From UHGV virus genome UHGV-0294267: a stretch of 43,190 nucleotides of DNA; one strand, given 5' to 3'. The notes beneath the pieces were generated by a model that was not told where the DNA came from, made no database searches, and was given only the letters and a program-made list of their open reading frames with translations. This DNA comes from a virus. Made by a program: the position numbers and the translations under genes. This document shows positions 182-16,740 of the stretch, one piece after another. Position 1 is the first letter of the stretch, and each line of letters begins with the position of its first letter.

Positions 182-1198
182 TCATTTTTTCTGACCACCA
201 ACAACCGGCACAATTTTAGTTTTCCTGTCGTAAATCGCCGTTTGTCTCGAATTCTTATGGCCTGAAATCGCCTGTTTCTCCTCGAGGCTTCCTTCCAGAT
301 CAGAGACACCTTTCGCTTTCAGATCGTGGAAAGTGAAATCTATCTGCAGGTGTGGGTTCTTTTCCTGCGCTGCGATTTTCGCGTCGCGCCAGCGTGAATT
401 AAAACCGTCGCGGGTGTATTTGCTGCCGCTGGTCTGGTGAATGACAAACAGGCTACGGATGCCCGGCTTTAACGGCAGGGAACGGGCGAGGGCGACAGCA
501 GCGCGCAGGCGTGGCGACCATGCTTTGATTTGCTTCACGCCTGTTTTTCCCTGGCGGATAAAGATCCCGGTTTCGCGTATCTGGTCTTCAGTCAAAGCCA
601 GCACATCGCTTTGTCTGGCCAGACACAAATAAGCGATTTCCATGGTGGCGCGAACTACGTCCGGAGCAACATCGTAAACCGCTTTGTATTCTTCGTCGGT
701 GATGTAACGCTCTCGGGCTGTCTCTTTGAACTTCTTAACGCCCTGACAGGGATTATGCTGGACGTAACCACGCTCATAACCCCAGCGGAATACCCGCGAA
801 AGAAAACTCTTTTCCCGGTTGGCCTGCGTTTTACTGGCCATGCCACGCTGATCCATATAGCGCCGGATGTGTTCTGGTTTAATTTTATCCGGGTTAACCT
901 TCCCGAATACCGGCAACACTTTGCCTGCGTATTTCGTGTAGTCTTTTCGGGTTTCTGCCGCTAAATCCTGCCAGTCTGGGGAAGACATGAATTGCTCGGC
1001 CAGAGCCTGAAACGTCTTGCGCTCGACTTCTTCTCCCATGGCTTTTTCATATGCCAGCCATACAGCTGATTGAGGCTCGGAGAGCGCACATAGCCTGATA
1101 GCCTTGTTATCTTTATTCCTGAATTCATACGCCGCCTTACCGCGATACACGCGGGGCGGCATCCAGTTATCAGCGGGGTTCTTACGTTTTCCGGCCAT
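182..1198 (-). CDS. int: tyrosine integrase (phage integrase family)
   Basis: 338-aa ORF beside the tRNA attachment site. The C-terminal region has the tyrosine-recombinase catalytic residues pattern (R...HDLK...GH..SR.TAIY). ATG at 1198. It overlaps xis by 17 nt, as in lambdoid int-xis pairs. Confidence 0.9.
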   Translation of the reverse strand: MAGKRKNPADNWMPPRVYRGKAAYEFRNKDNKAIRLCALSEPQSAVWLAYEKAMGEEVERKTFQALAEQFMSSPDWQDLAAETRKDYTKYAGKVLPVFGKVNPDKIKPEHIRRYMDQRGMASKTQANREKSFLSRVFRWGYERGYVQHNPCQGVKKFKETARERYITDEEYKAVYDVAPDVVRATMEIAYLCLARQSDVLALTEDQIRETGIFIRQGKTGVKQIKAWSPRLRAAVALARSLPLKPGIRSLFVIHQTSGSKYTRDGFNSRWRDAKIAAQEKNPHLQIDFTFHDLKAKGVSDLEGSLEEKQAISGHKNSRQTAIYDRKTKIVPVVGGQKK

Positions 1199-1427
1199 TA
1201 AAGATAGCTCCGAAGTCTGGTTCTTCCTCCCGCACCGTCTCTTCCTGCTGGTTGCGGTATTTAATCGGGTTCAGGAAATGGCCCCACGTCGTTTTAGGAT
1301 GGCCGTCTGCCCTTTCCATGAAAAAGACACCGGCCCGGCGTAGCGCTTCACACTGCCTCGATTTAAGTGGGGTCCCCGTCAGTTCGATCATTTCCTCTCT
1401 GGTGATGATGTCGTGATCGTGTCTCAT
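1182..1427 (-). CDS. xis: excisionase-like protein (Xis)
   Basis: 81-aa ORF immediately upstream of and overlapping int. The sequence MIELTGTPLKSRQCEALRRAGVFF is typical of small excisionase-like proteins. Translation start carries the motif GAGGAAAGACC-ATG. Confidence 0.65.
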   Translation of the reverse strand: MRHDHDIITREEMIELTGTPLKSRQCEALRRAGVFFMERADGHPKTTWGHFLNPIKYRNQQEETVREEEPDFGAIFNGRKT

Positions 1428-1581
1428 GGTCTTTCCTCAGCATGCCGGCTATCGCGTTGTCTGCCGTATCGCAAGCGCGTTGGATATCGGACTGGGTCAG
1501 AGTCCTCTTTCTAACGCTGGCTGATAGCCTGCCAATTTTGATATCGAAATCTGAAAGTAAAAGTGTGCCTGGTTGCCAACG

Positions 1582-1622
1582 TAGCATTGTGATCTCCGGT
1601 TCATAGGTAGATCACAATGCTA
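1582..1622. repeat. perfect 14-bp inverted repeat (TAGCATTGTGATCT - 13 bp - AGATCACAATGCTA)
   Basis: Read directly. It lies in the 210-bp non-coding gap between the 61-aa gene and xis on the leftward transcript. Confidence 0.6.
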
Positions 1623-1636
1623 ACGACAGTTGCGGG

Positions 1637-1822
1637 TTATTTCTGATTAGGCTTAATCAGGTTTGGTTTATTCCGGAACGCACCATTTTCGCGGGTGATT
1701 TTGGCACTGCGCGGGAAATGCATAGCCAGTTCGCAACGCGCGCAGGCTTCGATTATCCCGTTAGTACCGTCCGGAAAAACGACGTGAAGCGCATCGCCTC
1801 GTTTCAGTGTGAGTTTCAGCAT
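1637..1822 (-). CDS. hypothetical small early protein (61 aa)
   Basis: The track ORF 1637..1858 starts at TTG. An in-frame ATG at 1822 sits 1 nt after the Gp157-like stop codon, which suggests translational coupling. No recognisable domain. Confidence 0.45.
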   Translation of the reverse strand: MLKLTLKRGDALHVVFPDGTNGIIEACARCELAMHFPRSAKITRENGAFRNKPNLIKPNQK

Positions 1823-1823
1823 A

Positions 1824-2384
1824 TCAGCGCACCTGCAGCGAACGTTCGCCAATCTCAAGGTGAGCGCCCGGCACTGGGTTTAACAGTTCTTCCGGTATCT
1901 CTCCGCCGTCAGCGGTAATCTGGGCCGCTGCTGCCTGTGCTGATTCAATCGCTTCCTTGATGGCCTTTTTATCGGGCGCGATAACAACCTGAGTAGTCAC
2001 CAGTTCATCGGGAAGAAGATCGGTATTATCAATCACAACGCTTATGCTACCTTTGCGAGCGGTGAAAGTGTTTTTTGCCGTTTTCAGCTTATCCAACCCG
2101 GCCGCCATCAGGCAGGAGAGAATATACTTTCGCAGAGCCTTATCCTTATTCTCAAAGGACTTCTTTCGTTCGGCCAGGCGTTTTATTTCATCATCGCAGG
2201 TGCTGGCATTGCCGAGGTTATTACGTGCGATAACCATGATGGAATCCAGTTTATCGGCCAGTTCTCCTTCCATGCCTTCAAGGGTATCGGCGATCATTTC
2301 CGGAGTCAGGTCATCAGAGCTTTCCAGCAGTTGCAGCAGGTTCTGATAATCCGCGGCGATGGCAATAGCAGTAGTGGAAGTCAT
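1824..2384 (-). CDS. Siphovirus Gp157-like protein
   Basis: 186 aa, acidic and alpha-helical. Its position between the annealing-protein gene and xis and my recollection of the Sipho_Gp157 family suggest the call. The ATG at 2384 overlaps the upstream gene's stop as TAATG. Confidence 0.45.
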   Translation of the reverse strand: MTSTTAIAIAADYQNLLQLLESSDDLTPEMIADTLEGMEGELADKLDSIMVIARNNLGNASTCDDEIKRLAERKKSFENKDKALRKYILSCLMAAGLDKLKTAKNTFTARKGSISVVIDNTDLLPDELVTTQVVIAPDKKAIKEAIESAQAAAAQITADGGEIPEELLNPVPGAHLEIGERSLQVR

Positions 2385-4543
2385 TATGCTTTCTCCTCAG
2401 ATTTATTAAGTTCGGCGATACGTCCATTTTTGATATCAGTGAGACGGCGCAACCGGCTACTGAGGTGGCGGGAGCGCTGTGTGTCTCCTTTTGATTCTGC
2501 ATCCTTGCGGTGAACTTCGAGTTCTCGGGCGATAGGGGCAAACACCTTGTTAATTTCGTTCACCGATACAGCGTTTGCGAGGGTATTGGCGTTGCGGGTT
2601 AGTTTGTCGTCGAACTCCTGACGCAACCGAGCTGCATCTTCGGCAGTTTCGCTGGCGTTCTTGAGGTCAAACTCTGCTTTGTTTTCTTGCGTATAATTAG
2701 CATTATCGTACCAGCCTAAATATACATCAGCAGAGAATCCGAGCATGGACAGGGCTTTTTTAATCGCATCTGTCAGGCTTTTTTTCAGTACCTCTCCATC
2801 GGAAACAATCCTTTTAGTAGCTTTGTATAGATAAGGTGTCGCGCCGTAAGCCTCAATAGACGATATGCCGTTTTCTGTGCGGTACCAGAAGTCGATTTTT
2901 ATAGAGTGATTTTGTTCATAAACAAGCGAACCATCTGCATCACGAAGAACAGTCATGCGTACGAACTTATCTTTTTCATAAATGGCCTCGGTCATTGGTG
3001 CGCCGGGGATCATTTTTTCCTCCATAACTTTATATCCCCAGCCTTTACCAGCTGGACCGAATATTTCCGTTGCTCGCATAAACATATATTCAGCGGTGAT
3101 TGTGGTAGCTTTGAAACCGCCAATATCAAGAGGTTTAGTGTACTGTGGGTCAGTTCGCATGACCCGGCGCCATATATCCAGATTGTCGCGCTCACTATCT
3201 GATTTCTGCTCAATGAATTTTTCTATTTCTACGGCGCGCTGTTGGAAATCATCTGACACGATTCGCTCGGCTAATTGTTCTGCATCACCTGCTATTTTTT
3301 CAGCCTTAACGCTTAACTTCTCTTCCGGTTCTGCATCCTCACCAGATGCATATACGCCATAGCCCATATCGTTGAGAGTTTCACGCGCCTGTTTCGCCTG
3401 GATATCTGTAACAACCGGCGGCGGCACTTCCGCTTTTTTGCCCACGTTTGAGGCGGTATTTTGAATCGCCTCTGGTTGTTTAACGGATCCTGTCTCGATT
3501 TCTTCAAAGCGGCCGTTTGCCTCCAGCCATGAATCGATGTGGCGCCGCAGGCTGTCAGGGAAATGGTAGGTATCTTTCGCCGGTACGTTCTGCACCACAC
3601 CGAAGATGCTGGCGCGGTCGTATTTGAGTATCTGCGGAGTGGTGTGCAGCGATGCTGACCAGCGTTTAAAATCTTCCCGGTCATCGGAAATCATCTTCTT
3701 AGCGTCCAGAAGGTTTCCGGATAGTACCGGCGCATCAGGCGCCAGCGGGAGAAGGGCGGTAGCGATCTCCTGATCCAGCGTTGCATAAGTGTGTTTATAC
3801 CCGCGCTTAGAAATAACCACCGGCGTTTTATTGTCATCGGTGCTGGTGCTGAGAGCGGTATTTTTATATACGCCGGGGGCCAGTTCGTCGCGCTTGCCCG
3901 GATTCTCAAGCCAGCGTTTAACGAACTGAGAGATAGCCGCTTTGCCTGGCGTCTGGTTTTCAAAGTGGGAGAAAATCCCCTGAACAAGGTTATTCAGACC
4001 TTCCACATGCATGCTTTGAACCGGGAAGTTATTTTGCAGGGCGCACAGCACATTAAAGTTAAAGCGTTCTTCCTCTTCAAATTCCCCATCGTGGTTTTTC
4101 AGGTTATCCAGATAATCCACAACCTGAGAATAAAGATGGCCGTCAATCGCCGCGGTGCTAAAAAGCAGGACGGCAGCAAAGCGTTCCTCTGCGGAAACGG
4201 TCATCAGGTCGATCACTTCATCGTCTGCAGGTAAACCTGCACTGCTTCCGGAAGCGCTATCCTGCGCAGTAGAAACCCATTTTTCACCGTCAAAAGTATG
4301 CTGCTGGGCGAATGACTCATCGAACTGGCCAACGGTCGGCAGCGGCTGGCCTTCAACGTGTTCCCAAAGTTTCGGTTTGAAATAGTTGTCACCATTGGCC
4401 GGGTATGATTCCCAGAGTTTGCCGGTCATAATGCTTTCGGCCACTTTTTTGTTTGGCGCATCGATGGCGATCGCCAGCTGCACGGCGCCGCAGTCTTTAA
4501 TCGCCGATTTCTTTGGCTCAAATAAGCCGTTGTAGATGGTCAT
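2384..4543 (-). CDS. 719-aa protein carrying a Rad52/Rad22-family single-strand annealing domain in its C-terminal third, fused to a roughly 470-aa N-terminal region of unknown function
   Basis: Residues from about 470 (FKATTITAEYMFMRATEIFGPAGKGWGYKV...SMLGFSADVYLGWYDN) resemble Rad52-type phage annealing proteins. The start was reassigned to the ATG at 4543 (MTIYNG...), which is preceded by GAGGAAAGACCA. The N-terminal 470 aa are unrecognised. Confidence 0.55.
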   Translation of the reverse strand: MTIYNGLFEPKKSAIKDCGAVQLAIAIDAPNKKVAESIMTGKLWESYPANGDNYFKPKLWEHVEGQPLPTVGQFDESFAQQHTFDGEKWVSTAQDSASGSSAGLPADDEVIDLMTVSAEERFAAVLLFSTAAIDGHLYSQVVDYLDNLKNHDGEFEEEERFNFNVLCALQNNFPVQSMHVEGLNNLVQGIFSHFENQTPGKAAISQFVKRWLENPGKRDELAPGVYKNTALSTSTDDNKTPVVISKRGYKHTYATLDQEIATALLPLAPDAPVLSGNLLDAKKMISDDREDFKRWSASLHTTPQILKYDRASIFGVVQNVPAKDTYHFPDSLRRHIDSWLEANGRFEEIETGSVKQPEAIQNTASNVGKKAEVPPPVVTDIQAKQARETLNDMGYGVYASGEDAEPEEKLSVKAEKIAGDAEQLAERIVSDDFQQRAVEIEKFIEQKSDSERDNLDIWRRVMRTDPQYTKPLDIGGFKATTITAEYMFMRATEIFGPAGKGWGYKVMEEKMIPGAPMTEAIYEKDKFVRMTVLRDADGSLVYEQNHSIKIDFWYRTENGISSIEAYGATPYLYKATKRIVSDGEVLKKSLTDAIKKALSMLGFSADVYLGWYDNANYTQENKAEFDLKNASETAEDAARLRQEFDDKLTRNANTLANAVSVNEINKVFAPIARELEVHRKDAESKGDTQRSRHLSSRLRRLTDIKNGRIAELNKSEEKA

Positions 4544-4587
4544 TGGTCTTTCCTCTTGGTTTCTGGCGCAGGTCACGCGCCGGTTAA

Positions 4588-4911
4588 TTAAAACGGTACG
4601 TCGCTTTCTTCAATCGGAGAGTGATCGATGCACAGCAGCTGCTGAATCTGGTCTTCAATAACACCCAATTCCTTCTTTGCTTCGGCAGAGATTTTCTCTT
4701 TCTTCGCGCGAAGGGCATTAACCTGCATACCAATAATGTCGATTGGCTCTAAAGCCGGAATAGGAACCTCTACCGTTTTGGTAGTAACGAGGACATACAG
4801 ATCAGGGTATTGCTGTGACATGTCACAGGTGAATGAGTGATAAGACGTTGGTAGATATGGGTTCGTTGTGGCCATAACGTAAACAGTTACGGGGATGGTA
4901 AGCGCTTCCAT
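4588..4911 (-). CDS. hypothetical early protein (107 aa) with an SSB-like C-terminal tail (..IEESDVPF)
   Basis: ATG at 4911 with an AAGGAG ribosome-binding site 6 nt upstream. It is the first gene of the leftward early operon. The C-terminus ends in an acidic stretch plus PF, like the protein-interaction tails of SSBs. Confidence 0.55.
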   Translation of the reverse strand: MEALTIPVTVYVMATTNPYLPTSYHSFTCDMSQQYPDLYVLVTTKTVEVPIPALEPIDIIGMQVNALRAKKEKISAEAKKELGVIEDQIQQLLCIDHSPIEESDVPF

Positions 4912-5073
4912 AGCGACTCCTTGATGATGTATACTCAGAGCCGATCAGTGTTGACTCCGTCGGCATTGGTCTTTCCTAATCGCCGGGGTGGTTCCCGGCA
5001 AAATCCGAATGGTTTGGTCACCGTTCGGGGTAACTGGCCCGCCTTGTGCGGGCCTTTTGCCATCTAAAGGTTG

Positions 5074-5170
5074 CCGGTCTTTCCCGGCTGTCAGGGCTGG
5101 TCAGGCCCGCAGGTCTTTCCTCCCGGTCTTTCCCGGCGTCAGAGCTGGTCAGGCTCACTGGTCTTTCCTC
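5074..5170. repeat. two tandem ~48-bp direct repeats, each with two copies of GGTCTTTCC (GGAAAGACC on the leftward transcript)
   Basis: The units are 5074-5122 and 5123-5170: CCGGTCTTTCCCGGC(T)GTCAG(G/A)GCTGGTCAGGC(CCGCA/TCACT)GGTCTTTCCTC. Further copies of GGTCTTTCC lie at 4968-4976, 5292-5300 and (variant CGTCTTTCC) 5342-5350. Confidence 0.8.
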
Positions 5171-5234
5171 ACGGGGTCCCTCTTTTCGAGGGCTTCAGTT
5201 TTCACTGAAGGGTCGCATAAATCGTTACTGTGTT

Positions 5235-5259
5235 AAAAAAATGCCCGGGGCGCCCGGGC
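5235..5259 (-). terminator. rho-independent terminator on the minus strand inside the repeat/leader region
   Basis: Perfect hairpin GCCCGGG-CGC-CCCGGGC (5243-5259 on the plus strand). On the minus strand it is followed by AT plus six T (complement of the A run 5235-5240). Confidence 0.55.
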
Positions 5260-5491
5260 CAAGACTACACACAGCAATTCGTATTCGTTGCGGTCTTTCC
5301 CGCATGTCATCGTACTGTCGGCGACCCGAAGAATTCGCGCCCGTCTTTCCGGACTGTCAGAACTGTTTCTGAACAACTGCCGCGTGGTTTGTGCGTCGTT
5401 GATGTGATGAATATTAGAATTGAGCATATTTTAGGTCAAGAAGAAAATACTCGTAAAAATAATATTAATTATATGCCATTGATTGATAAGC

Positions 5492-5516
5492 GAAAAAAAA
5501 TCCCGGCTTGCGGGAT
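5492..5516 (-). terminator. rho-independent terminator of the repressor gene
   Basis: Minus-strand hairpin ATCCCG-CAAGC-CGGGAT followed by eight T (A run 5493-5500 on the plus strand). It sits 20 nt after the repressor stop codon. Confidence 0.7.
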
Positions 5517-5535
5517 TCTTTAATTGGAGGGGGAT

Positions 5536-6000
5536 TTATTGCTTTCTTGCTGCGAGTAACTCTTCAAATAAACGGTCAAAACCAACTACTTTATCTTTTA
5601 ATTCAGATAGATGCCTTTCTTTTTCACTTTGAGGAAGTCTTTCATACAGCTCGATGAGTTCGGCTTCTTCTGGCTTCAACAGACGCCACCCTGCTGACGA
5701 ATAATCATCAACGTGTGTACCCGATTTTCGAACATAGTTCATCAGTTCGGCCAGATCGGGACGTAGGTCCTCAGGTTTTACTCCCAGCAAAGCTGCGAAC
5801 TTTAGAGCGGCGTCGGTGTTTAGCGGAATATTACCGTTCAGATAGTGGCTGACAGTAGCCTGTGTACTGAAGCCAAGTGCATCCGCCGCCTTTTCTTGTG
5901 TAAGGCGTAAAGTTACTTTTTTTTCGTTCCAGATGTCCCGGAGACGTTGAGCGGTTTCTGATTCATCCGCGTCGAGTGTTTTTTTTCTCATGGCGTCCAT
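5536..6000 (-). CDS. prophage repressor, HTH (XRE/cI-like) DNA-binding domain, no S24 peptidase domain
   Basis: 154 aa. An N-terminal helix-turn-helix (LTQEKAADALGFSTQATVSHYLNG) is present. It is divergent from a cro-like gene across a 99-bp promoter region. At 154 aa it is too short to hold a LexA/cI-type autocleavage domain. An alternative start is the ATG at 5991. Confidence 0.75.
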   Translation of the reverse strand: MDAMRKKTLDADESETAQRLRDIWNEKKVTLRLTQEKAADALGFSTQATVSHYLNGNIPLNTDAALKFAALLGVKPEDLRPDLAELMNYVRKSGTHVDDYSSAGWRLLKPEEAELIELYERLPQSEKERHLSELKDKVVGFDRLFEELLAARKQ

Positions 6001-6039
6001 ATTATTCGCAAAATTAATTTACGCCCAATCGCATAAGTA

Positions 6040-6069
6040 TTGACACCCAGATATTATTAAAACTAATAT
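6040..6069 (+). promoter_or_regulatory. candidate PR-like promoter for the cro-like gene (TTGACA - 18 bp - TAATAT), with the inverted repeat AATATTA-N7-TAATATT as a candidate operator
   Basis: The -35/-10-like hexamers are read directly from the divergent intergenic region 6001-6099. An AGGAGG ribosome-binding site lies at 6089-6094. Confidence 0.4.
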
Positions 6070-6099
6070 TCATGTGTCACATACATCTCAGGAGGACAT

Positions 6100-6333
6100 A
6101 TGGATCTTAAAACCTATCTAAAGACCTCTGGCGTTCGCCAGCAGGATTTCGCTCAAGTCGTTGGCGAGACGCAGGGCTATGTCAGTCGCGTTGCATCAGG
6201 AAAATGCCTGCTTGGTGCTGCAACTGCATTGAAATGGGCCGCTGCAACTGGCTATCAAGTAACACCGCATGATCTACTCCCCAATATTTACCGAAAACCA
6301 ACTGACGGACTGCCGGAACAGAATGCAGCTTAA
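6100..6333 (+). CDS. Cro-like HTH regulator
   Basis: 77-aa ORF divergent from the repressor, with a strong ribosome-binding site and an HTH (RQQDFAQVVGETQGYVSRVASG). Confidence 0.7.
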   Translation: MDLKTYLKTSGVRQQDFAQVVGETQGYVSRVASGKCLLGAATALKWAAATGYQVTPHDLLPNIYRKPTDGLPEQNAA

Positions 6334-6395
6334 CAATCTGCGTTATCGAAATCTGATTACGCTTAATCAATTTTCAGCGACAGGAGACGCTCGAA

Positions 6396-6842
6396 GTGGA
6401 ATACCTCGAAGAACTTAAACGAGAGATCTTTAACTGGGCAGCGGAAAGCGGGCAGGAGCTGGTTGCTATCGAGATAAGCCGCATGTGGTTTCGTCTTGGG
6501 GGTAATACCGGTTCGCTGAAGCTGCACCAGATCGAAGATGCAGATGGAAACGCCGACTGGCGGGCAATCAACAACAACCGCCAACAAATTTTTCGTTGGT
6601 TGCGAGGCGAGACCAAAGCCGCGAGAGCCAAAACTCTGGCGCTGGTCAAAGCGATGGAAGCGGCGCTGCCGGCAGAGCGTTACGCTCGCTTGGGTATGTC
6701 CACCCAGTATTTAATTTGTGTGGCCATTCGTGAGTTTGCCGCGGCGATTATCGCGTTGTTACTCGACGCCAGAGATGGGCCGCAGCAAGTCGCTAGAGCA
6801 TTGCAAGCTATGCGAGAAACACAACGCCTGACCAGCGTTTAA
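6396..6842 (+). CDS. CII-like phage regulatory protein (CP76/YdaT-like family, tentative)
   Basis: 148 aa, GTG start after an AGGAGA site. Its position directly downstream of cro, and motifs such as IFRWLRGETK recalled from CII(CP76)/YdaT-type proteins, support the call. Confidence 0.4.
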   Translation: MEYLEELKREIFNWAAESGQELVAIEISRMWFRLGGNTGSLKLHQIEDADGNADWRAINNNRQQIFRWLRGETKAARAKTLALVKAMEAALPAERYARLGMSTQYLICVAIREFAAAIIALLLDARDGPQQVARALQAMRETQRLTSV

Positions 6843-6862
6843 CCTGTACCGAGGAAAGACCA

Positions 6863-7084
6863 ATGAGAACACAAGACCGCATCACCTGGCGGAATGGGTT
6901 TCGCCGGAACGGGGTACAAGTCCCGATGGAAGATATCGAATCGATTTTCGAAGAGCGTCGCGCTACTGCGCTGACAATCTGGGAACGCTATGAACTGCGC
7001 AAGGCAGATCTGCAGGAAGCGGGACTCACCCAGAAAGAATACGAAATCGCCTGCCGTCAGCTGGCTGACTCGCTGGGGATCTGA
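6863..7084 (+). CDS. hypothetical protein (73 aa)
   Basis: ORF whose start carries the motif CCGAGGAAAGACCAATG. No known domain. Confidence 0.5.
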   Translation: MRTQDRITWRNGFRRNGVQVPMEDIESIFEERRATALTIWERYELRKADLQEAGLTQKEYEIACRQLADSLGI

Positions 7085-7086
7085 CT

Positions 7087-8070
7087 ATGAGTATGACGCT
7101 TATGGCCAAAGCAATGGCAATCAAGACCGGAAACCCGATTCGAAAACTGGTGCTGATCAAACTGGCTGATAACGCCAATGATTCCGGCGAATGCTGGCCG
7201 TCTTACAAACATATTGCGGATCACTGCGAGTGCAGCAAAAGCGCGGTGCGTGACCATATCGATGCGTTAATTTCTATGGGCCTGCTGGTGAAAGAAAACC
7301 GCCCGGGCGTAAAAAACGGGAAGGGTAACGCGTCGAATTTGTACTGTATGAAACTTGATAACCCTATGCCGCCAAAAAGCATAGCCCCTATGCCGTCAAA
7401 AAGCACAGGTATGCCGCCAAAAAGCATAGCCCCTATGCCGTGTGGCGGCACCAGAACCAGTCACTCTTTTGAACCAGTCATAGAACCTATAGATCCCCCT
7501 AACCCCCAGGAGGGGGAAGGCGATGAAAAAATTAATTCTGATGCTAAAAAAGCACTGGAATTTTACAACGAGCAAACCGGTACCCGCTGCCGTGACCTGA
7601 AACCGTTTGTGCTGATGCTGACGCCGACCACCACCCGGGCAGGATACACGCTGGACGAATTGCAGTTAGTTATCCGCTGGGTGCTGGCCACATGGCGCCG
7701 CCGTGGCGATAGCCTGCCGAAGCCTGCGAACATCTGCCGGGTAAACCGCTTTGATGGTTATCTCGCTGACGCTGAAGCATGGGCGGTGACCGAAACCGAT
7801 ATTGATCCGGAAGCCGTTATGAACGGCTACAACGAAATTTTTGCTGACGTTCTGCCTGCTGCTGAACTGGACACCGACCGGCGCCGGATGATCACCCGTC
7901 TTGCCGCCCACATGAAAAACAAAACCACGGGCGCATTTCTGGGTTATTTCGAAAAATTCCGCGCTGACGCCTCCGATTTTTACTTTGGTGAAAATGGCGG
8001 ATGGCGCGCCAGCTTTGACTATCTGATGAAACCAGAAACATTGCGTAAGACCAGGGAGGGCGCTCTATGA
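7087..8070 (+). CDS. replication initiation protein (lambda O-like), containing internal iterons
   Basis: 327 aa. The N-terminal replication-protein HTH region (KLVLIKLADNANDSGECWPSYKHIADHC...) resembles phage replisome-organizer proteins. It lies immediately upstream of the helicase gene, with an overlapping stop/start. Confidence 0.65.
   Translation: MSMTLMAKAMAIKTGNPIRKLVLIKLADNANDSGECWPSYKHIADHCECSKSAVRDHIDALISMGLLVKENRPGVKNGKGNASNLYCMKLDNPMPPKSIAPMPSKSTGMPPKSIAPMPCGGTRTSHSFEPVIEPIDPPNPQEGEGDEKINSDAKKALEFYNEQTGTRCRDLKPFVLMLTPTTTRAGYTLDELQLVIRWVLATWRRRGDSLPKPANICRVNRFDGYLADAEAWAVTETDIDPEAVMNGYNEIFADVLPAAELDTDRRRMITRLAAHMKNKTTGAFLGYFEKFRADASDFYFGENGGWRASFDYLMKPETLRKTREGAL
7364..7442. other. 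candidate origin of replication: four ~23-bp iterons, (C)TATGCCG(C/T)CAAAAAGCA(T/C)AG, inside the O-like gene, followed by an A/T-richer stretch
   Basis: Direct repeats at 7364, 7388, 7410 and 7433 (the last one partial). Each has CTATGC/GCATAG dyad ends. They encode the peptide repeats MPPKSIAPMP. Lambda ori has the same arrangement. Confidence 0.5.
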
Positions 8071-9473
8071 TGCAGATGATGTATTCCACTCAGGAGCTGG
8101 AATGTCTGGTTCTTGGCTGCCTGATGAACGGCGGCGCCACGCCTGATGCCTTTGATGTGATTGCCAGCACGCCGAGCGAGGCTTTCAGCGTCGCATACTA
8201 CAGACAGATTTACGGCGTGATCAAAGCGCAGGCGTTGAGCGGCGGCTTAATTGACATGATGTACATTAGCGAGGCCATCGGCGGACAGGGAACGCTGGCC
8301 AATCTCGCCGATATTTGCAAATTTCCCACATCGATCGTCAATCTCAAAGGCTACGCCAAAAAAATGGTTAAGGCCTGGCGAAGCAGAACCATAGCGCAAT
8401 TACTTCAGGATGGTGCGGATGGTATTCGTGATGCGATAAACCAGGAACAGCGCGATCAGGTTGTCGAAACTGCCGTGGCGCAGCTGCTGGACATGACCGG
8501 CGACACTGGCGACGTTCAGCCGGTACACATGAGCGAATTATTGCCGGTGTACATGGAAACCATGCAGAAGCGCATGGATGGTGAAGAGGGTACCCGCAAC
8601 CTGAAAACCGGGATCGAAGAACTGGACGATGCAACCGGCGGAATCAACCTGCAGGATTTGATTGTCGTCGCCGGGCGTCCGGGCATGGGAAAAACAGAAT
8701 TTGCGCTGAAGATTGTCGATGGTGTTACCGCTGCCGGCGGTGGCGCGTTGATATTCAGTATGGAGATGGCCGCTGCGCAAATCGTAGAACGCTCTCTGGC
8801 GGGTTCTGGCAACATGTCAGTGTCACGCCTGCGTAATCCCCTCGATATGCAGGACGAGGACTGGGCGCGCTTTACAGCGGCCATGGAGACCATGAACGGG
8901 CGCGATATCTGGATCGTTGATGCTACCGATCTGACGATTGAGCAAATCCGCGCCGTTGCCGAAACGCATAAGCGCCGGTATCCGCATCTGGCAATGATCG
9001 TTGTCGATTACCTTGGCCTGATTAAAAAACCGAAGGCAGAGCGTAACGACCTCGCGATCGCCCACATATCCCGAAACCTAAAAACTATGGCTATGCGTCT
9101 GCATACGCCGACGTTCGCGCTAAGCCAGCTTTCCCGCGCCGTGGATTCCCGCCCGGCTACCCAGCGCCGCCCGGTCATGTCAGATCTGCGCGATTCCGGT
9201 TCTATTGAGCAGGACGCCGACAGCATTATGTTTCTGTATCGCGATGAGGTTTACAACCCGGAAAGCCCGGCGGCTGGCGTCGCTGAAATTATCCTGGGTA
9301 AAAGCCGCTTCAGTGCCGCAGGCGCAATTATTTATCAGGAATTTAAAAACGGACACTTTCTGTCAATGGATCAGCATGTTGGCAAAGAGAAAACACGTAT
9401 CCAACTGGAGGCCGCGAAACCCCGGAAACAACCCCGTAAATACTCTGAGAGATTCAATACCGATGCATTTTAA
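8067..9473 (+). CDS. replicative DNA helicase, DnaB family
   Basis: 468 aa with Walker A (GRPGMGKT) and the DnaB-type motifs (VDYLGLIK, SQLSR, DLRDSGSIEQDAD). Confidence 0.9.
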   Translation: MMQMMYSTQELECLVLGCLMNGGATPDAFDVIASTPSEAFSVAYYRQIYGVIKAQALSGGLIDMMYISEAIGGQGTLANLADICKFPTSIVNLKGYAKKMVKAWRSRTIAQLLQDGADGIRDAINQEQRDQVVETAVAQLLDMTGDTGDVQPVHMSELLPVYMETMQKRMDGEEGTRNLKTGIEELDDATGGINLQDLIVVAGRPGMGKTEFALKIVDGVTAAGGGALIFSMEMAAAQIVERSLAGSGNMSVSRLRNPLDMQDEDWARFTAAMETMNGRDIWIVDATDLTIEQIRAVAETHKRRYPHLAMIVVDYLGLIKKPKAERNDLAIAHISRNLKTMAMRLHTPTFALSQLSRAVDSRPATQRRPVMSDLRDSGSIEQDADSIMFLYRDEVYNPESPAAGVAEIILGKSRFSAAGAIIYQEFKNGHFLSMDQHVGKEKTRIQLEAAKPRKQPRKYSERFNTDAF

Positions 9474-9511
9474 CCGCGCCTGACCAGCGCGATTTAACCG
9501 AGGAAAGACCA

Positions 9512-10180
9512 ATGACCACGAATTTAAATTACCCAAAACCAGTAAAACCGGATGATGGCTGCAACTGGCTTCCCGTTATTCTCTGGCGCATGAACGCCGG
9601 CGCGCGCGCCCGTAGCCGTTCCGTGTTCGTTGCGGCACCACGTCCGGCACCTGTACCCGGCATCACACCGCAAAAACCGATTAAGCGTGAAATTATCGCC
9701 CCTACTGTTTCCGGCCGCAGGCGTAAGACCCACATCGGCACCGTGATTTATTCCAGAGGTGAAAAAAACGTTCGCCTGAGTGAAGGCGCTACCGTCTGGT
9801 CTGCTGGCTCTAATGAGCATTTCGATAAAAAAACGGGCCAGCGAGTCGGCAGTATTGGCCGTCACCGTCTGGTGCTGGAGAGTATCCGCCCATTGCAGGC
9901 CAGCGACGAACAGCAGGACGCCGGGAGCGTCACCGCGCAGCAGCTGGTAGCCGTGATGAAAGGCAAAACGCTTTCTTACCAGGGCATCCTGGCATTAATC
10001 CAGAAGCACTATCCAGATTGTCAGGTGACGATCAAAGAACTTCACGATCGCGTGTTCGGCATGTTCATGTCGAATTACGTGGGTATCACCCGTCACGACG
10101 ATATGCCGGTGGTTCACTTCACGCTTAACAGCGTCGATCCCCGTTATTACATCGAGTCAGCGAAGAACAAGAGGACATAA
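9512..10180 (+). CDS. hypothetical protein (222 aa)
   Basis: ORF with the start motif CCGAGGAAAGACCAATG. No recognised domain. Confidence 0.55.
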   Translation: MTTNLNYPKPVKPDDGCNWLPVILWRMNAGARARSRSVFVAAPRPAPVPGITPQKPIKREIIAPTVSGRRRKTHIGTVIYSRGEKNVRLSEGATVWSAGSNEHFDKKTGQRVGSIGRHRLVLESIRPLQASDEQQDAGSVTAQQLVAVMKGKTLSYQGILALIQKHYPDCQVTIKELHDRVFGMFMSNYVGITRHDDMPVVHFTLNSVDPRYYIESAKNKRT

Positions 10181-16439: not shown

Positions 16440-16506
16440 TGGCGGCTACGCGCTGCATGGAAATAAGTAGTAATCGCGCTCATACCCCGCCAATGAGGAA
16501 AGAACA

Positions 16507-16740
16507 ATGATCACCATTGAAAACGAAGAGGCAAAAAAGCTGCTGGAACTGATGAAAGCCCGCTTTCTTAAAGCCCACCTGAATACAGCCATGTACGGCG
16601 CAGCTGCTTACGCGAACGGCAATTCTGACCGTGTGATTTTACGCGCAGTAAAAAACGGTGACGCCCCTGAACTGAAAATCCTGATGGCCACTATGGGTCT
16701 CATCCCTGAAGAGGAAGACAACATTGAAAAAACTGCATGA
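16507..16740 (+). CDS. hypothetical protein (77 aa)
   Basis: ORF only. Confidence 0.4.
   Translation: MITIENEEAKKLLELMKARFLKAHLNTAMYGAAAYANGNSDRVILRAVKNGDAPELKILMATMGLIPEEEDNIEKTA

Follow-up and report, generated by a model that had tools for sequence, protein, structure and literature searches.

A conserved start-site tag and a candidate complementary antisense RNA in the early region of a lambdoid prophage

The stretch of DNA studied here, hereafter the window, comprises the whole 43,190 nucleotides (nt) of the virus genome UHGV-0294267. The subject of this report is a 12-nt sequence tag that precedes the start codons of several of its early genes, recurs in a noncoding early leader, and has its complement in a candidate antisense small RNA that we call asL. 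The window is a lambdoid, Rac-like prophage of Klebsiella type. At its left end the 3' end of a tRNA and attL lie ahead of int (182-1198, minus strand), which is followed by xis, encoding a DUF4224 excisionase (1182-1427, minus strand, ATG side at 1427). The genes for p61 and for a Gp157/Gam-like protein, both of the left operon, are located between xis and the gene for a 719-amino-acid (aa) exonuclease (2384-4543, minus strand, ATG at 4543). The first gene of the left operon encodes p107 (107 aa; 4588-4911, minus strand, ATG at 4911) and has an AAGGAG of its own; a noncoding leader of approximately 490 nt separates it from the gene for a cI-like repressor (5536-6000, minus strand). Directly downstream of the cI terminator there is a sigma-70-like promoter on the minus strand (5411-5439; TTGACC, 17 nt, TAATAT), which is likely to be PL. 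The plus strand carries cro (6100-6333), a gene for a YdaT/CII-like protein (6396-6842), p73 (73 aa; 6863-7084), RepO and then DnaB, and p222 (222 aa; 9512-10180), with methyltransferases and the late genes beyond.

The nonamer GGAAAGACC occurs ten times in the window against 0.32 copies expected, with a maximum of two in shuffled sequences, and the longer form GAGGAAAGACC, allowing at most one mismatch, is found at 8 sites against 0.53 expected. Eight of the exact copies are on the minus strand (1428, 4545, 4968, 5076, 5112, 5125, 5160 and 5292) and two on the plus strand (6853 and 9502); the leader contains in addition a variant at 5342/5343, which reads GGAAAGACg. All copies are oriented with transcription, minus to the left of the cI/cro divergence and plus to the right of it, and within the leader GGAAAGAC and GAAAGA are each present seven times in the sense orientation and never in the antisense orientation. 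The exact copies are restricted to 1428-9510, and the related phage vB_SmeS_BUCT708, of which the complete genome was scanned, likewise has the tag in its early region only. The statement of the earlier note that the motif is absent from the other 33 kb therefore holds for exact matches, but not when one mismatch is allowed, since GAGGAAAGAAC is located at 16495..16505 on the plus strand, followed by the AATG of a 77-aa open reading frame (ORF; 16507-16740) just ahead of the packaging genes. We list this copy with low confidence as a possible sixth tag site; no copy like it was found in the matching region of BUCT708, nor anywhere outside the early region of that genome.

Copies at ribosome-binding sites (RBSs) have the form cGAGGAAAGACCA(A)UG, and the extended tag GAGGAAAGACCA is present on four early translational units. 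These are headed by xis (tag GAGGAAAGACC plus ATG, 1428..1438, minus strand; xis-int unit, with the same site tagged in relatives), by the exonuclease (4545..4555, minus strand; exonuclease/Gp157/p61 unit), by p73 (6851..6861, plus strand, ATG at 6863; p73-RepO-DnaB unit) and by p222 (9500..9510, plus strand, ATG at 9512; p222 and the genes following it). Each of the four is the first cistron of a block of closely spaced or overlapping genes. The cI, cro, YdaT/CII-like and p107 genes have other RBSs and no tag, and the remaining phage genes, about 45 in number, have ordinary, varied RBSs. The tag is thus an asymmetric motif with a Shine-Dalgarno (SD) core that lies, in a single orientation, a few nt 5' of the ATG of non-structural genes. 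A fifth ORF proposed earlier to share the start motif, beginning at ATG 4966, is not a gene, because the ATG is missing in 19 of 38 sequence variants of the site in related prophages and the frame overlaps p107 out of frame. The tag copy at 4968 is nevertheless invariant, although half of the variants have no ATG there, as would be expected if this copy encodes the seed of asL (see below).

Conservation of the tag was assessed in the window together with related loci (59 sequences in all), taking ORFs of at least 55 codons, and 237 instances heading an ORF were obtained in 102 unique contexts. In these contexts positions -2 to +9 (GAGGAAAGACCA) are 94-100% conserved and the flanks 30-60%. The search itself demanded the central GGAAAGAC, and the independent evidence of conservation is therefore confined to the flanking GA and CA. 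The proposal that the motif is more than a Shine-Dalgarno sequence is borne out, with 12 near-invariant nt between variable flanks. Over 100 related prophages, from Klebsiella, E. coli, Serratia and further genera, have the tag in near-invariant form; homologues with identities down to 46% (Serratia, Enterobacter, Raoultella, Rosenbergiella) retain the same tag, and the leader copies that head no gene are kept across genera, from Klebsiella to Serratia and Rosenbergiella. Of 5426 complete E. coli genomes, 453 (8%) have the leader region, and in them this noncoding sequence is more strongly conserved than its neighbour genes; the prophage family is also common in Klebsiella. Homologues of p107 are found chiefly in Klebsiella, and also in Raoultella, Enterobacter and Serratia; a protein-based scan of genome contigs with p107 gave no match, and a DNA pattern scan succeeded instead. 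Between p107 and the exonuclease the related phages carry none, one or two small genes, each bounded by tags (L002, gene at 5696-5980 with tags at 5982 and 5666; viral loci with tags at about 7359, 7597, 7675 and 7913). Since each inserted small gene is bounded in this way, the tag also marks cassette boundaries.

The leader copies are embedded in RNA structure on the sense strand. Two tandem 48-nt units (5074..5170, minus strand), which may serve as a decoy or target array, had been recognized previously; they are 46 nt long, 80% identical and spaced by 48 nt, and the six further leader cores reported with them (5076, 5112, 5125, 5160, 5292 and the variant at 5342) all proved to be correctly placed. 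Each unit consists of GAGGAAAGACC, a hairpin 1 with the loop CUGACCA, UGAC(A)G, and a hairpin 2 made up of a stem and a GAAAGA loop. Nearer to PL are hairpin B (GCGG-GAAAGA-CCGC, 5290-5303, minus strand) and hairpin A (UCCG-GAAAGA-CGGG, 5340..5353, minus strand), the latter with a U-G pair that exists only on the leftward transcript. The cores of the leader class form the closing G-C pair and the GAAAGA hexaloop of small hairpins, with (C/A)UGACAG just 5' of them. Their stems covary (CCGG/CCGG, GCGG/CCGC, UCCG/CGGG, UCUG/CAGG, GAGG/CUUC and, in the Serratia aquatilis locus L071, GUGU/ACAC), and in hairpins A and B the G-U pairs are possible on the leftward, sense transcript only. In L071 hairpin A keeps the GAAAGA loop and its closing pair has covaried to U-A; this leader has also a 50-aa ORF (3854-4005) inserted within it.

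Hairpin 1 is not confined to the leader. It has a stem of 4-5 bp and a loop (C/G)UGACC(A/U), and is placed ahead of three of the four RBS tags at a distance of 15-18 nt: as GGCGC-GUGACCU-GCGCC (4565..4581, minus strand) 16 nt upstream of the exonuclease tag, as AACGC-CUGACCA-GCGUU (6823..6839, plus strand) at the end of the YdaT/CII-like gene, upstream of the p73 tag, and as CGCGC-CUGACCA-GCGCG (9475..9491, plus strand) directly past the DnaB stop codon, upstream of the p222 tag. The RBSs of the tagged genes are predicted to be unpaired, with open initiation regions. The leader contains also a strong intrinsic terminator in the sense direction, t1 (5243-5259 plus U7, 5236-5259 overall, minus strand), at which its first approximately 170 nt end. 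Since t1 lies between PL and all genes of the PL operon, read-through or antitermination is needed for expression of the left operon.

On the opposite strand, the last 120 nt or so of the PL leader, its 3' end, have the features of a separate small RNA. The proposed asL is approximately 120 nt long (about 4942..5061, plus strand) and would start from a -10-like hexamer, TATACT (4930..4935, plus strand), placed just upstream of the p107 SD on the other strand. Its seed, UUGGUCUUUCCU (4966..4977, plus strand), is the exact complement of AGGAAAGACCAA and is followed by hairpin a3 (4982..4999, plus strand), with a variable stem and the loop GUGGUU in the window and UUGGUC in most relatives, by hairpin a4 (5005..5028, plus strand), with the loop UUUGGUCA or AUUGGUCU, and by an intrinsic terminator, GGCCCGC-CUUGU-GCGGGCC-UUUU (5036..5058, plus strand), which has a U-tail on the plus strand only. 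The 3' portion of the leader was aligned for 68 loci, which gave 38 unique sequences, and subsequently for over 100 loci. All 38 of the 38 unique variants contain the hexamer TATA(C/A)T at a distance of 24-32 nt ahead of the seed, the only variation in it being at the position that matters least; in the Serratia group its context is TGaTATAAT. The seed sequence UGGUCUUUCCU is invariant (alignment columns 31-42), the first seed U alone being A or C in a few relatives, and the terminator has its A-run on the sense side in all variants, which places the U-tail on the antisense strand.

The covariation in a3 and a4 points to the same strand. Taken together the two helices are 99.3% paired in 19 distinct sequences, compared with about 50% in slid controls, and compensatory double changes are observed at 9 of 16 pairs (6 of 7 in a3), values that were reached in none of 500 column shuffles. 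Read as antisense RNA, all 166 of 166 a4 cells are paired (48 of them as G-U), compared with 118 of 166 read as sense RNA, where the G-U positions turn into A-C. The RNAalifold consensus energy of the 3' part of the leader is -20.2 kcal/mol for the antisense strand and -8.0 kcal/mol for the sense strand, and the 5' part of the leader has the opposite preference (-32.1 kcal/mol sense, -18.6 kcal/mol antisense), which indicates that the method does discriminate between strands. The minimum free energy predicted for the asL of the window (4942-5062) is -66.4 kcal/mol, with z = -7.2. A covariance model of asL scores 125 bits in the window, gives exactly one strong match per related phage (50-138 bits), and matches also lineages that were left out when it was built. 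No Rfam family is matched by asL at gathering scores, the best being isrK (RF01394; 21.9 bits against a threshold of 50, E = 0.017), and the paper on IsrK describes no mechanism or motif in common with asL. An asL-specific pattern was found in 10 of 185,579 species representatives, all of them Enterobacterales (Serratia, Citrobacter, Escherichia, Raoultella, Pseudescherichia and Rosenbergiella). As a separate observation, the terminator stem (5037-5048) read on the minus strand contains a 12-mer, GGCCCGCACAAG, that is identical to 16S rRNA 928-939 (approximately 0.05 expected) and has no evident meaning.

The asL sequence UGGUCUUUCCU(C) is the exact complement of (G)AGGAAAGACCA, the invariant part of the tag, and the conserved spans of seed and tag begin and end at the same positions. 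A second complementarity exists between UGGUCA in the a4 loop and UGACCA in the loop of hairpin 1, and the order of the elements, loop then tag in the mRNA and seed then loops in asL, fits antiparallel pairing at two sites. Tag and asL occur together: all 41 of the 41 IMG/VR loci with at least four tag copies have asL, all such loci being members of the family, and the other loci matched by the 15-mer in that database lack asL and hold a single copy or two at the most, some of these loci being pieces of family contigs. Seed-only duplexes with the starts of p222, the exonuclease and p73 (-27.7, -26.7 and -23.9 kcal/mol) rank first, second and fourth among 996 candidate starts (mean -11.0, standard deviation 3.4 kcal/mol), a ranking that restates the motif match and is thus not independent evidence. 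The seed-only calculation was used because duplexes of the whole RNA with all start regions (duplexfold) are dominated by GC-rich artefacts and are uninformative.

From the motif statistics and conservation, the covarying, strand-specific structure, the direction of the terminator, and the complementarity and joint occurrence of tag and asL, we arrive at a reading to which we give roughly even weight, namely that the tag (G)AGGAAAGACCA is the target of asL, which would repress translation of the early genes, and that the leader copies are decoy or attenuation sites. What we infer here is the transcription of asL, its repressing action in trans and the part played by the leader copies. Transcription of asL would run rightward (plus strand, about 4942-5061) from the conserved -10 element. 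Its seed would pair with the unstructured RBSs of xis-int, exonuclease-Gam-like, p73-RepO-DnaB and p222, units that would between them hold all early effector functions, and at three of these sites the loops UUGGUC and UUUGGUCA may form kissing contacts with the CUGACCA loop of hairpin 1. Such pairing would mask the SD and the spacer (AAAGACCA), stop ribosome entry and so block initiation. In a lysogen PL is expected to be off, and asL, being unopposed, would silence leaky xis-int, recombination and replication messages. On induction, convergent transcription from PL could cut the synthesis of asL, and the PL leader, with its five to eight further sense copies, unstructured or displayed as GAAAGA hexaloops, would titrate what remains of it as a multi-copy sponge. 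An alternative role for the leader copies is that asL might affect termination at t1, as the CI RNA of the satellite phage P4 does.

Several points weigh against this proposal. The xis site has no hairpin 1. A -35 element for asL was not found, the -10 element of the window does not have the extended -10 TG of the Serratia group, and the bases of this element might instead be kept for the p107 initiation region, as an AU-rich stretch ahead of its SD. In the asL of the window a 5' hairpin is predicted to take up half of the seed (CAUUGGUC). Because asL is antisense to one copy of a repeat, its complementarity to the distant tags is automatic and adds nothing independent in favour of action in trans. 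A clean case of covariation between seed and target was not obtained, even with distant lineages included, the tag being too invariant; in L071 the seed reads ...CCUU and the three RBS-class tags read (A/U)AGGAAAGACC, a loose joint change of seed and targets that is no more than suggestive. Finally, a conserved host factor would fit the invariance across genera as well.

The earlier note had suggested a common trans-acting factor, a translational repressor or RNA-binding regulator, and the idea of a shared factor for which the leader provides additional or decoy sites fares well; as to its nature, the evidence favours RNA, since a conserved antisense RNA holds the exact complement of the tag and no RNA-binding protein was found. 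The protein version is unlikely in our estimate and is nonetheless the alternative to be taken most seriously. It holds that a phage or host protein, which could be RegA-, Com-, coat-protein- or CsrA-like, or N-like on the GAAAGA hexaloops, recognizes GGAAAGACC(A) in the sense transcripts; the leader copies would then be autoregulatory or decoy sites, and asL a separate cis-antisense regulator. The sense hairpins, with covarying stems, an invariant GAAAGA loop and G-U pairs in the sense RNA only, are what such a protein might recognize, and the invariance of the motif across genera would fit a conserved host protein. Three conserved proteins with no assigned function, p107, p73 and p222, accompany the system; p73 and p222 carry the tag themselves, as autoregulated repressors do, and the N-terminus of p73 is basic. 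However, no RNA-binding domain or relative was detected for any early protein by Pfam, PHROGs, PDB sequence search or AF2 models with Foldseek. In particular, there is no homologue of RegA among 10 early proteins (Pfam) or 20 proteins of the early and middle regions (PHROGs), p61, p107, p73 and p222 have no Pfam, PHROGs or PDB sequence match, and the AF2 single-sequence models are uninformative, that of p73 (pLDDT 72.6) having no Foldseek match at E<1 and that of p222 a pLDDT of 32.6. With the CsrA/RsmA consensus RUACARGGAUGU the tag appears to share GGA alone, which would not explain the invariant AAGACCA. A protein would also leave the hairpins of the antisense strand, the complement of the tag and the exact mirroring of the conserved span unexplained.

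It is rather improbable, in our view, that asL is real but acts in cis only, on the PL leader and p107, the RBS tag being kept for some other reason and the complementarity being a by-product of motif duplication. Antisense RNAs acting in cis are common at phage immunity regions (P22 sar and lambda OOP are examples), the complementarity is, as stated, automatic, and asL may itself mask half of the seed. Action in cis, on the other hand, has no need of loops and a seed that remain invariant across genera while the stems drift, and it leaves 12 identical nt at four unlinked RBSs unexplained.

About equally doubtful, if anything a shade more so, is the idea that the tag is an efficient RBS cassette or a 'linker' at module boundaries, spread and homogenised by recombination and read by no dedicated trans factor. 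The GAGG at a good distance from the ATG and the A-rich spacer fit an efficient RBS, and the gain and loss of tag-bounded small genes between p107 and the exonuclease is what recombination at short, conserved boundaries would produce. The leader copies, however, head no gene and have been retained over a range that extends from Klebsiella to Serratia and Rosenbergiella, some of them as loops on covarying stems; the approximately 45 other genes have ordinary, varied RBSs, and 12 invariant nt are more than an RBS needs.

That the copies are DNA iterons or operators for an early DNA-binding regulator, as the earlier note also considered, we regard as very improbable. In favour of it, the copies are many and form a cluster beside the immunity region, and operators that are asymmetric and scattered are known from phage P1. 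All copies are, however, co-oriented with transcription and exactly at the SD-to-ATG distance; the arms covary around a fixed centre, the opposite of what is seen in a protein-bound palindrome, and the asymmetry between G-U and A-C is that of RNA. We read this orientation, the covariation of stems with fixed loops and the strand-specific G-U pairs as signatures of RNA, which leave the iteron reading without support. Replication iterons are to be sought in RepO instead, where direct repeats CCCTATGCCG(C/T)CAAAAAGCA at about 7370-7445 are likely to be those of the replication origin, distinct from the tag. Least credible of all is mimicry of 23S rRNA G2056-C2064 (the A2058 region) for recruiting or evading an rRNA-binding host factor, since the exact identity of GGAAAGACC with these nucleotides of E. 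coli 23S rRNA (the A2058 macrolide/Erm/TLR13 site) is probably a coincidence, given a chance of about 1-2% of finding a given 9-mer in rRNA, a different structural context, and 14 9-mers shared by leader and 23S rRNA, six of them the tag itself, against 6.6 expected, which puts the other shared k-mers at chance level.

Returning to asL as the proposed factor that reads the tag, the arrangement can be compared with that of several known regulators. The CI RNA of P4 is a small immunity RNA with targets that are repeated in an untranslated leader (seqA/seqC), and it causes termination. The c4 RNA of P1 and P7 displays in its loops the complement of repeated early-mRNA sites, including an RBS, and blocks icd-ant (PMC12197685). 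In asL, similarly, the complementary counterparts of the tag AGGAAAGACCA and of the CUGACCA loops are the seed UGGUCUUUCCU and the loops UUGGUC and UUUGGUCA. There are also differences. Whereas c4 and CI are cut from a leader transcript of the same sense, the structure and terminator of asL are on the opposite strand, with a -10 element of their own; c4 controls one operon (icd-ant), the tag being found on four unlinked units in two divergent operons; and the c4 seeds differ between the heteroimmune P1 and P7, the asL seed being invariant across genera. The Rfam C4 model (RF01695) has no match at its gathering score in the whole window, and none at E<=10 in 4850-5480. We propose from this comparison that c4 and CI are mechanistically the closest systems, and that the present one, which is no member of their group, may work in a like manner.

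In its outward features the tag has most in common with the start-associated sequence (SAS) of the cluster K mycobacteriophages, an asymmetric motif of about 13 nt with an SD core that precedes the ATG of some non-structural genes by 3-7 nt (PMC3203893). It occurs in one orientation and is conserved across subclusters ahead of unrelated genes, about half of the sites having an inverted repeat just upstream, and most cluster K genomes contain one unexplained copy in reverse orientation (PMC3203893). The authors left open whether SAS is bound by RNA or protein (PMC3203893), and this was still unresolved in 2025 (PMC12699233). The tag resembles SAS/ESAS as an asymmetric, start-proximal motif with an SD core, and hairpin 1 upstream of three of the four tags is comparable to the SAS inverted repeat. 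The consensus sequences differ, however (GGGATAGGAGCCC for SAS/ESAS in cluster K phages, GAGGAAAGACCA for the tag in Enterobacterales prophages), as do host phylum and phage type; a genome contains 9-20 SAS sites and here four or five tags, and neither a leader array nor an antisense partner has been described for SAS. The SAS/ESAS system is thus phenomenologically the closest, and the present system is not a member of it.

Other known systems share single features with asL and the tag. P22 sar and lambda OOP are short constitutive antisense RNAs of the immunity or early region, with an intrinsic terminator, that pair at or near an RBS, but each has one overlapping target, and neither has a shared distant tag or repeated decoys. 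T4 RegA, the analogy drawn in the earlier note, is similar in being one factor for many early mRNAs, with a site that overlaps the initiation region; it is however a protein with loose AU-rich sites, in contrast to a strict 12-mer, and no homologue was found here. As for RNA sponges, prophage AgvB is an anti-sRNA that titrates the base-pairing regulator GcvB by means of a target-mimic sequence (PMC4104026). The sponge proposed here would differ in being the regulated operon's own leader, with several copies, a role that we infer.

Taken one step further, the proposal is that in a temperate phage one antisense RNA is the master gate on translation, with a 12-nt address tag on each early effector unit (excision, recombination, replication) and with the induced leader as the sponge that turns the gate off. 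This wider form we offer only tentatively and think it somewhat improbable as a whole. If true, it would be the first proposed mechanism for 'start-associated sequences' in phages, and it would predict an anti-SAS RNA in cluster K mycobacteriophages, in which SAS has been without an explanation since 2011. Confirmation would add to lysogeny control an RNA layer that is independent of the variable CI repressors, with possible cross-immunity between heteroimmune relatives that share the tag, and the sponge-gated switch could be reused in synthetic biology. The phage-immunity antisense RNAs known so far have, to our knowledge, a single target each, and a literature search for this tag motif in phages found nothing.

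The features of the leader around t1 recall a different small RNA. The RprA-like 3' module of the leader (5233..5334, minus strand, extending to the PL start at about 5404) includes hairpin B and t1. Its last approximately 50 nt before the end of t1, consisting of the 22-nt ACGAAUUGCUGUGUGUAGUCUU, a GC hairpin and a U-run, are near-identical to the processed 3' part of E. coli RprA (about 47 nt), and ACGAATTGCTGTGTGTAGTCTT with the hairpin and T7AACA can be aligned with E. coli RprA. The Rfam model RF00034 gives 43.3 bits (E = 5e-4) in the window and 39.1 bits in the locus L057, scores below its gathering score of 70. The 17-mer TTGCTGTGTGTAGTCTT is present in 75 of 108 family loci, and the structure of this 5' module of the leader is favoured on the sense strand. 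A functional 47-nt RprAproc has been described (PMC9262595). Judged from this resemblance, PL transcripts that end at t1 would be RprA mimics, which suggests that an induced prophage may feed the RpoS/Rcs small-RNA network of its host; a literature search for an RprA-like prophage RNA found nothing. In the leaders of L057, L001 and L004 an extra insert of approximately 300 nt (about 7440-7735 in L057) is located between hairpin B and the RprA-like seed and ends in a T-arm-like GGTTCGACTCCGG; it contains no tRNA according to ARAGORN and no Rfam family.

A system like lambda nut/N was considered and rejected, with no boxA and no N-like protein: no boxA (GCUCUUUAAC-like) with at most two mismatches is present in the leader (4912-5404), and p107 is unlike an N-like protein, being acidic, without an arginine-rich N-terminus and without a Pfam or PDB relative. 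Just upstream of the first tandem unit there is a boxB-like hairpin, CCCUC-GAAAA-GAGGG (5178-5192, minus strand), adjoined by a GNRA-tetraloop hairpin (5194-5211, minus strand). The boxB-like loop varies in relatives (GAAGA, as in lambda nutL, GAGGA and CAAGA), and the GAAAGA loops are hexaloops.

Finally, two phages recorded from 'Stenotrophomonas', vB_SmeS_BUCT708 and BUCT709 (L001 / L189, OM816834.1), are members of this Enterobacterales prophage family. They have the same synteny as the window and a leader that is 81% identical, and their recorded host looks doubtful.

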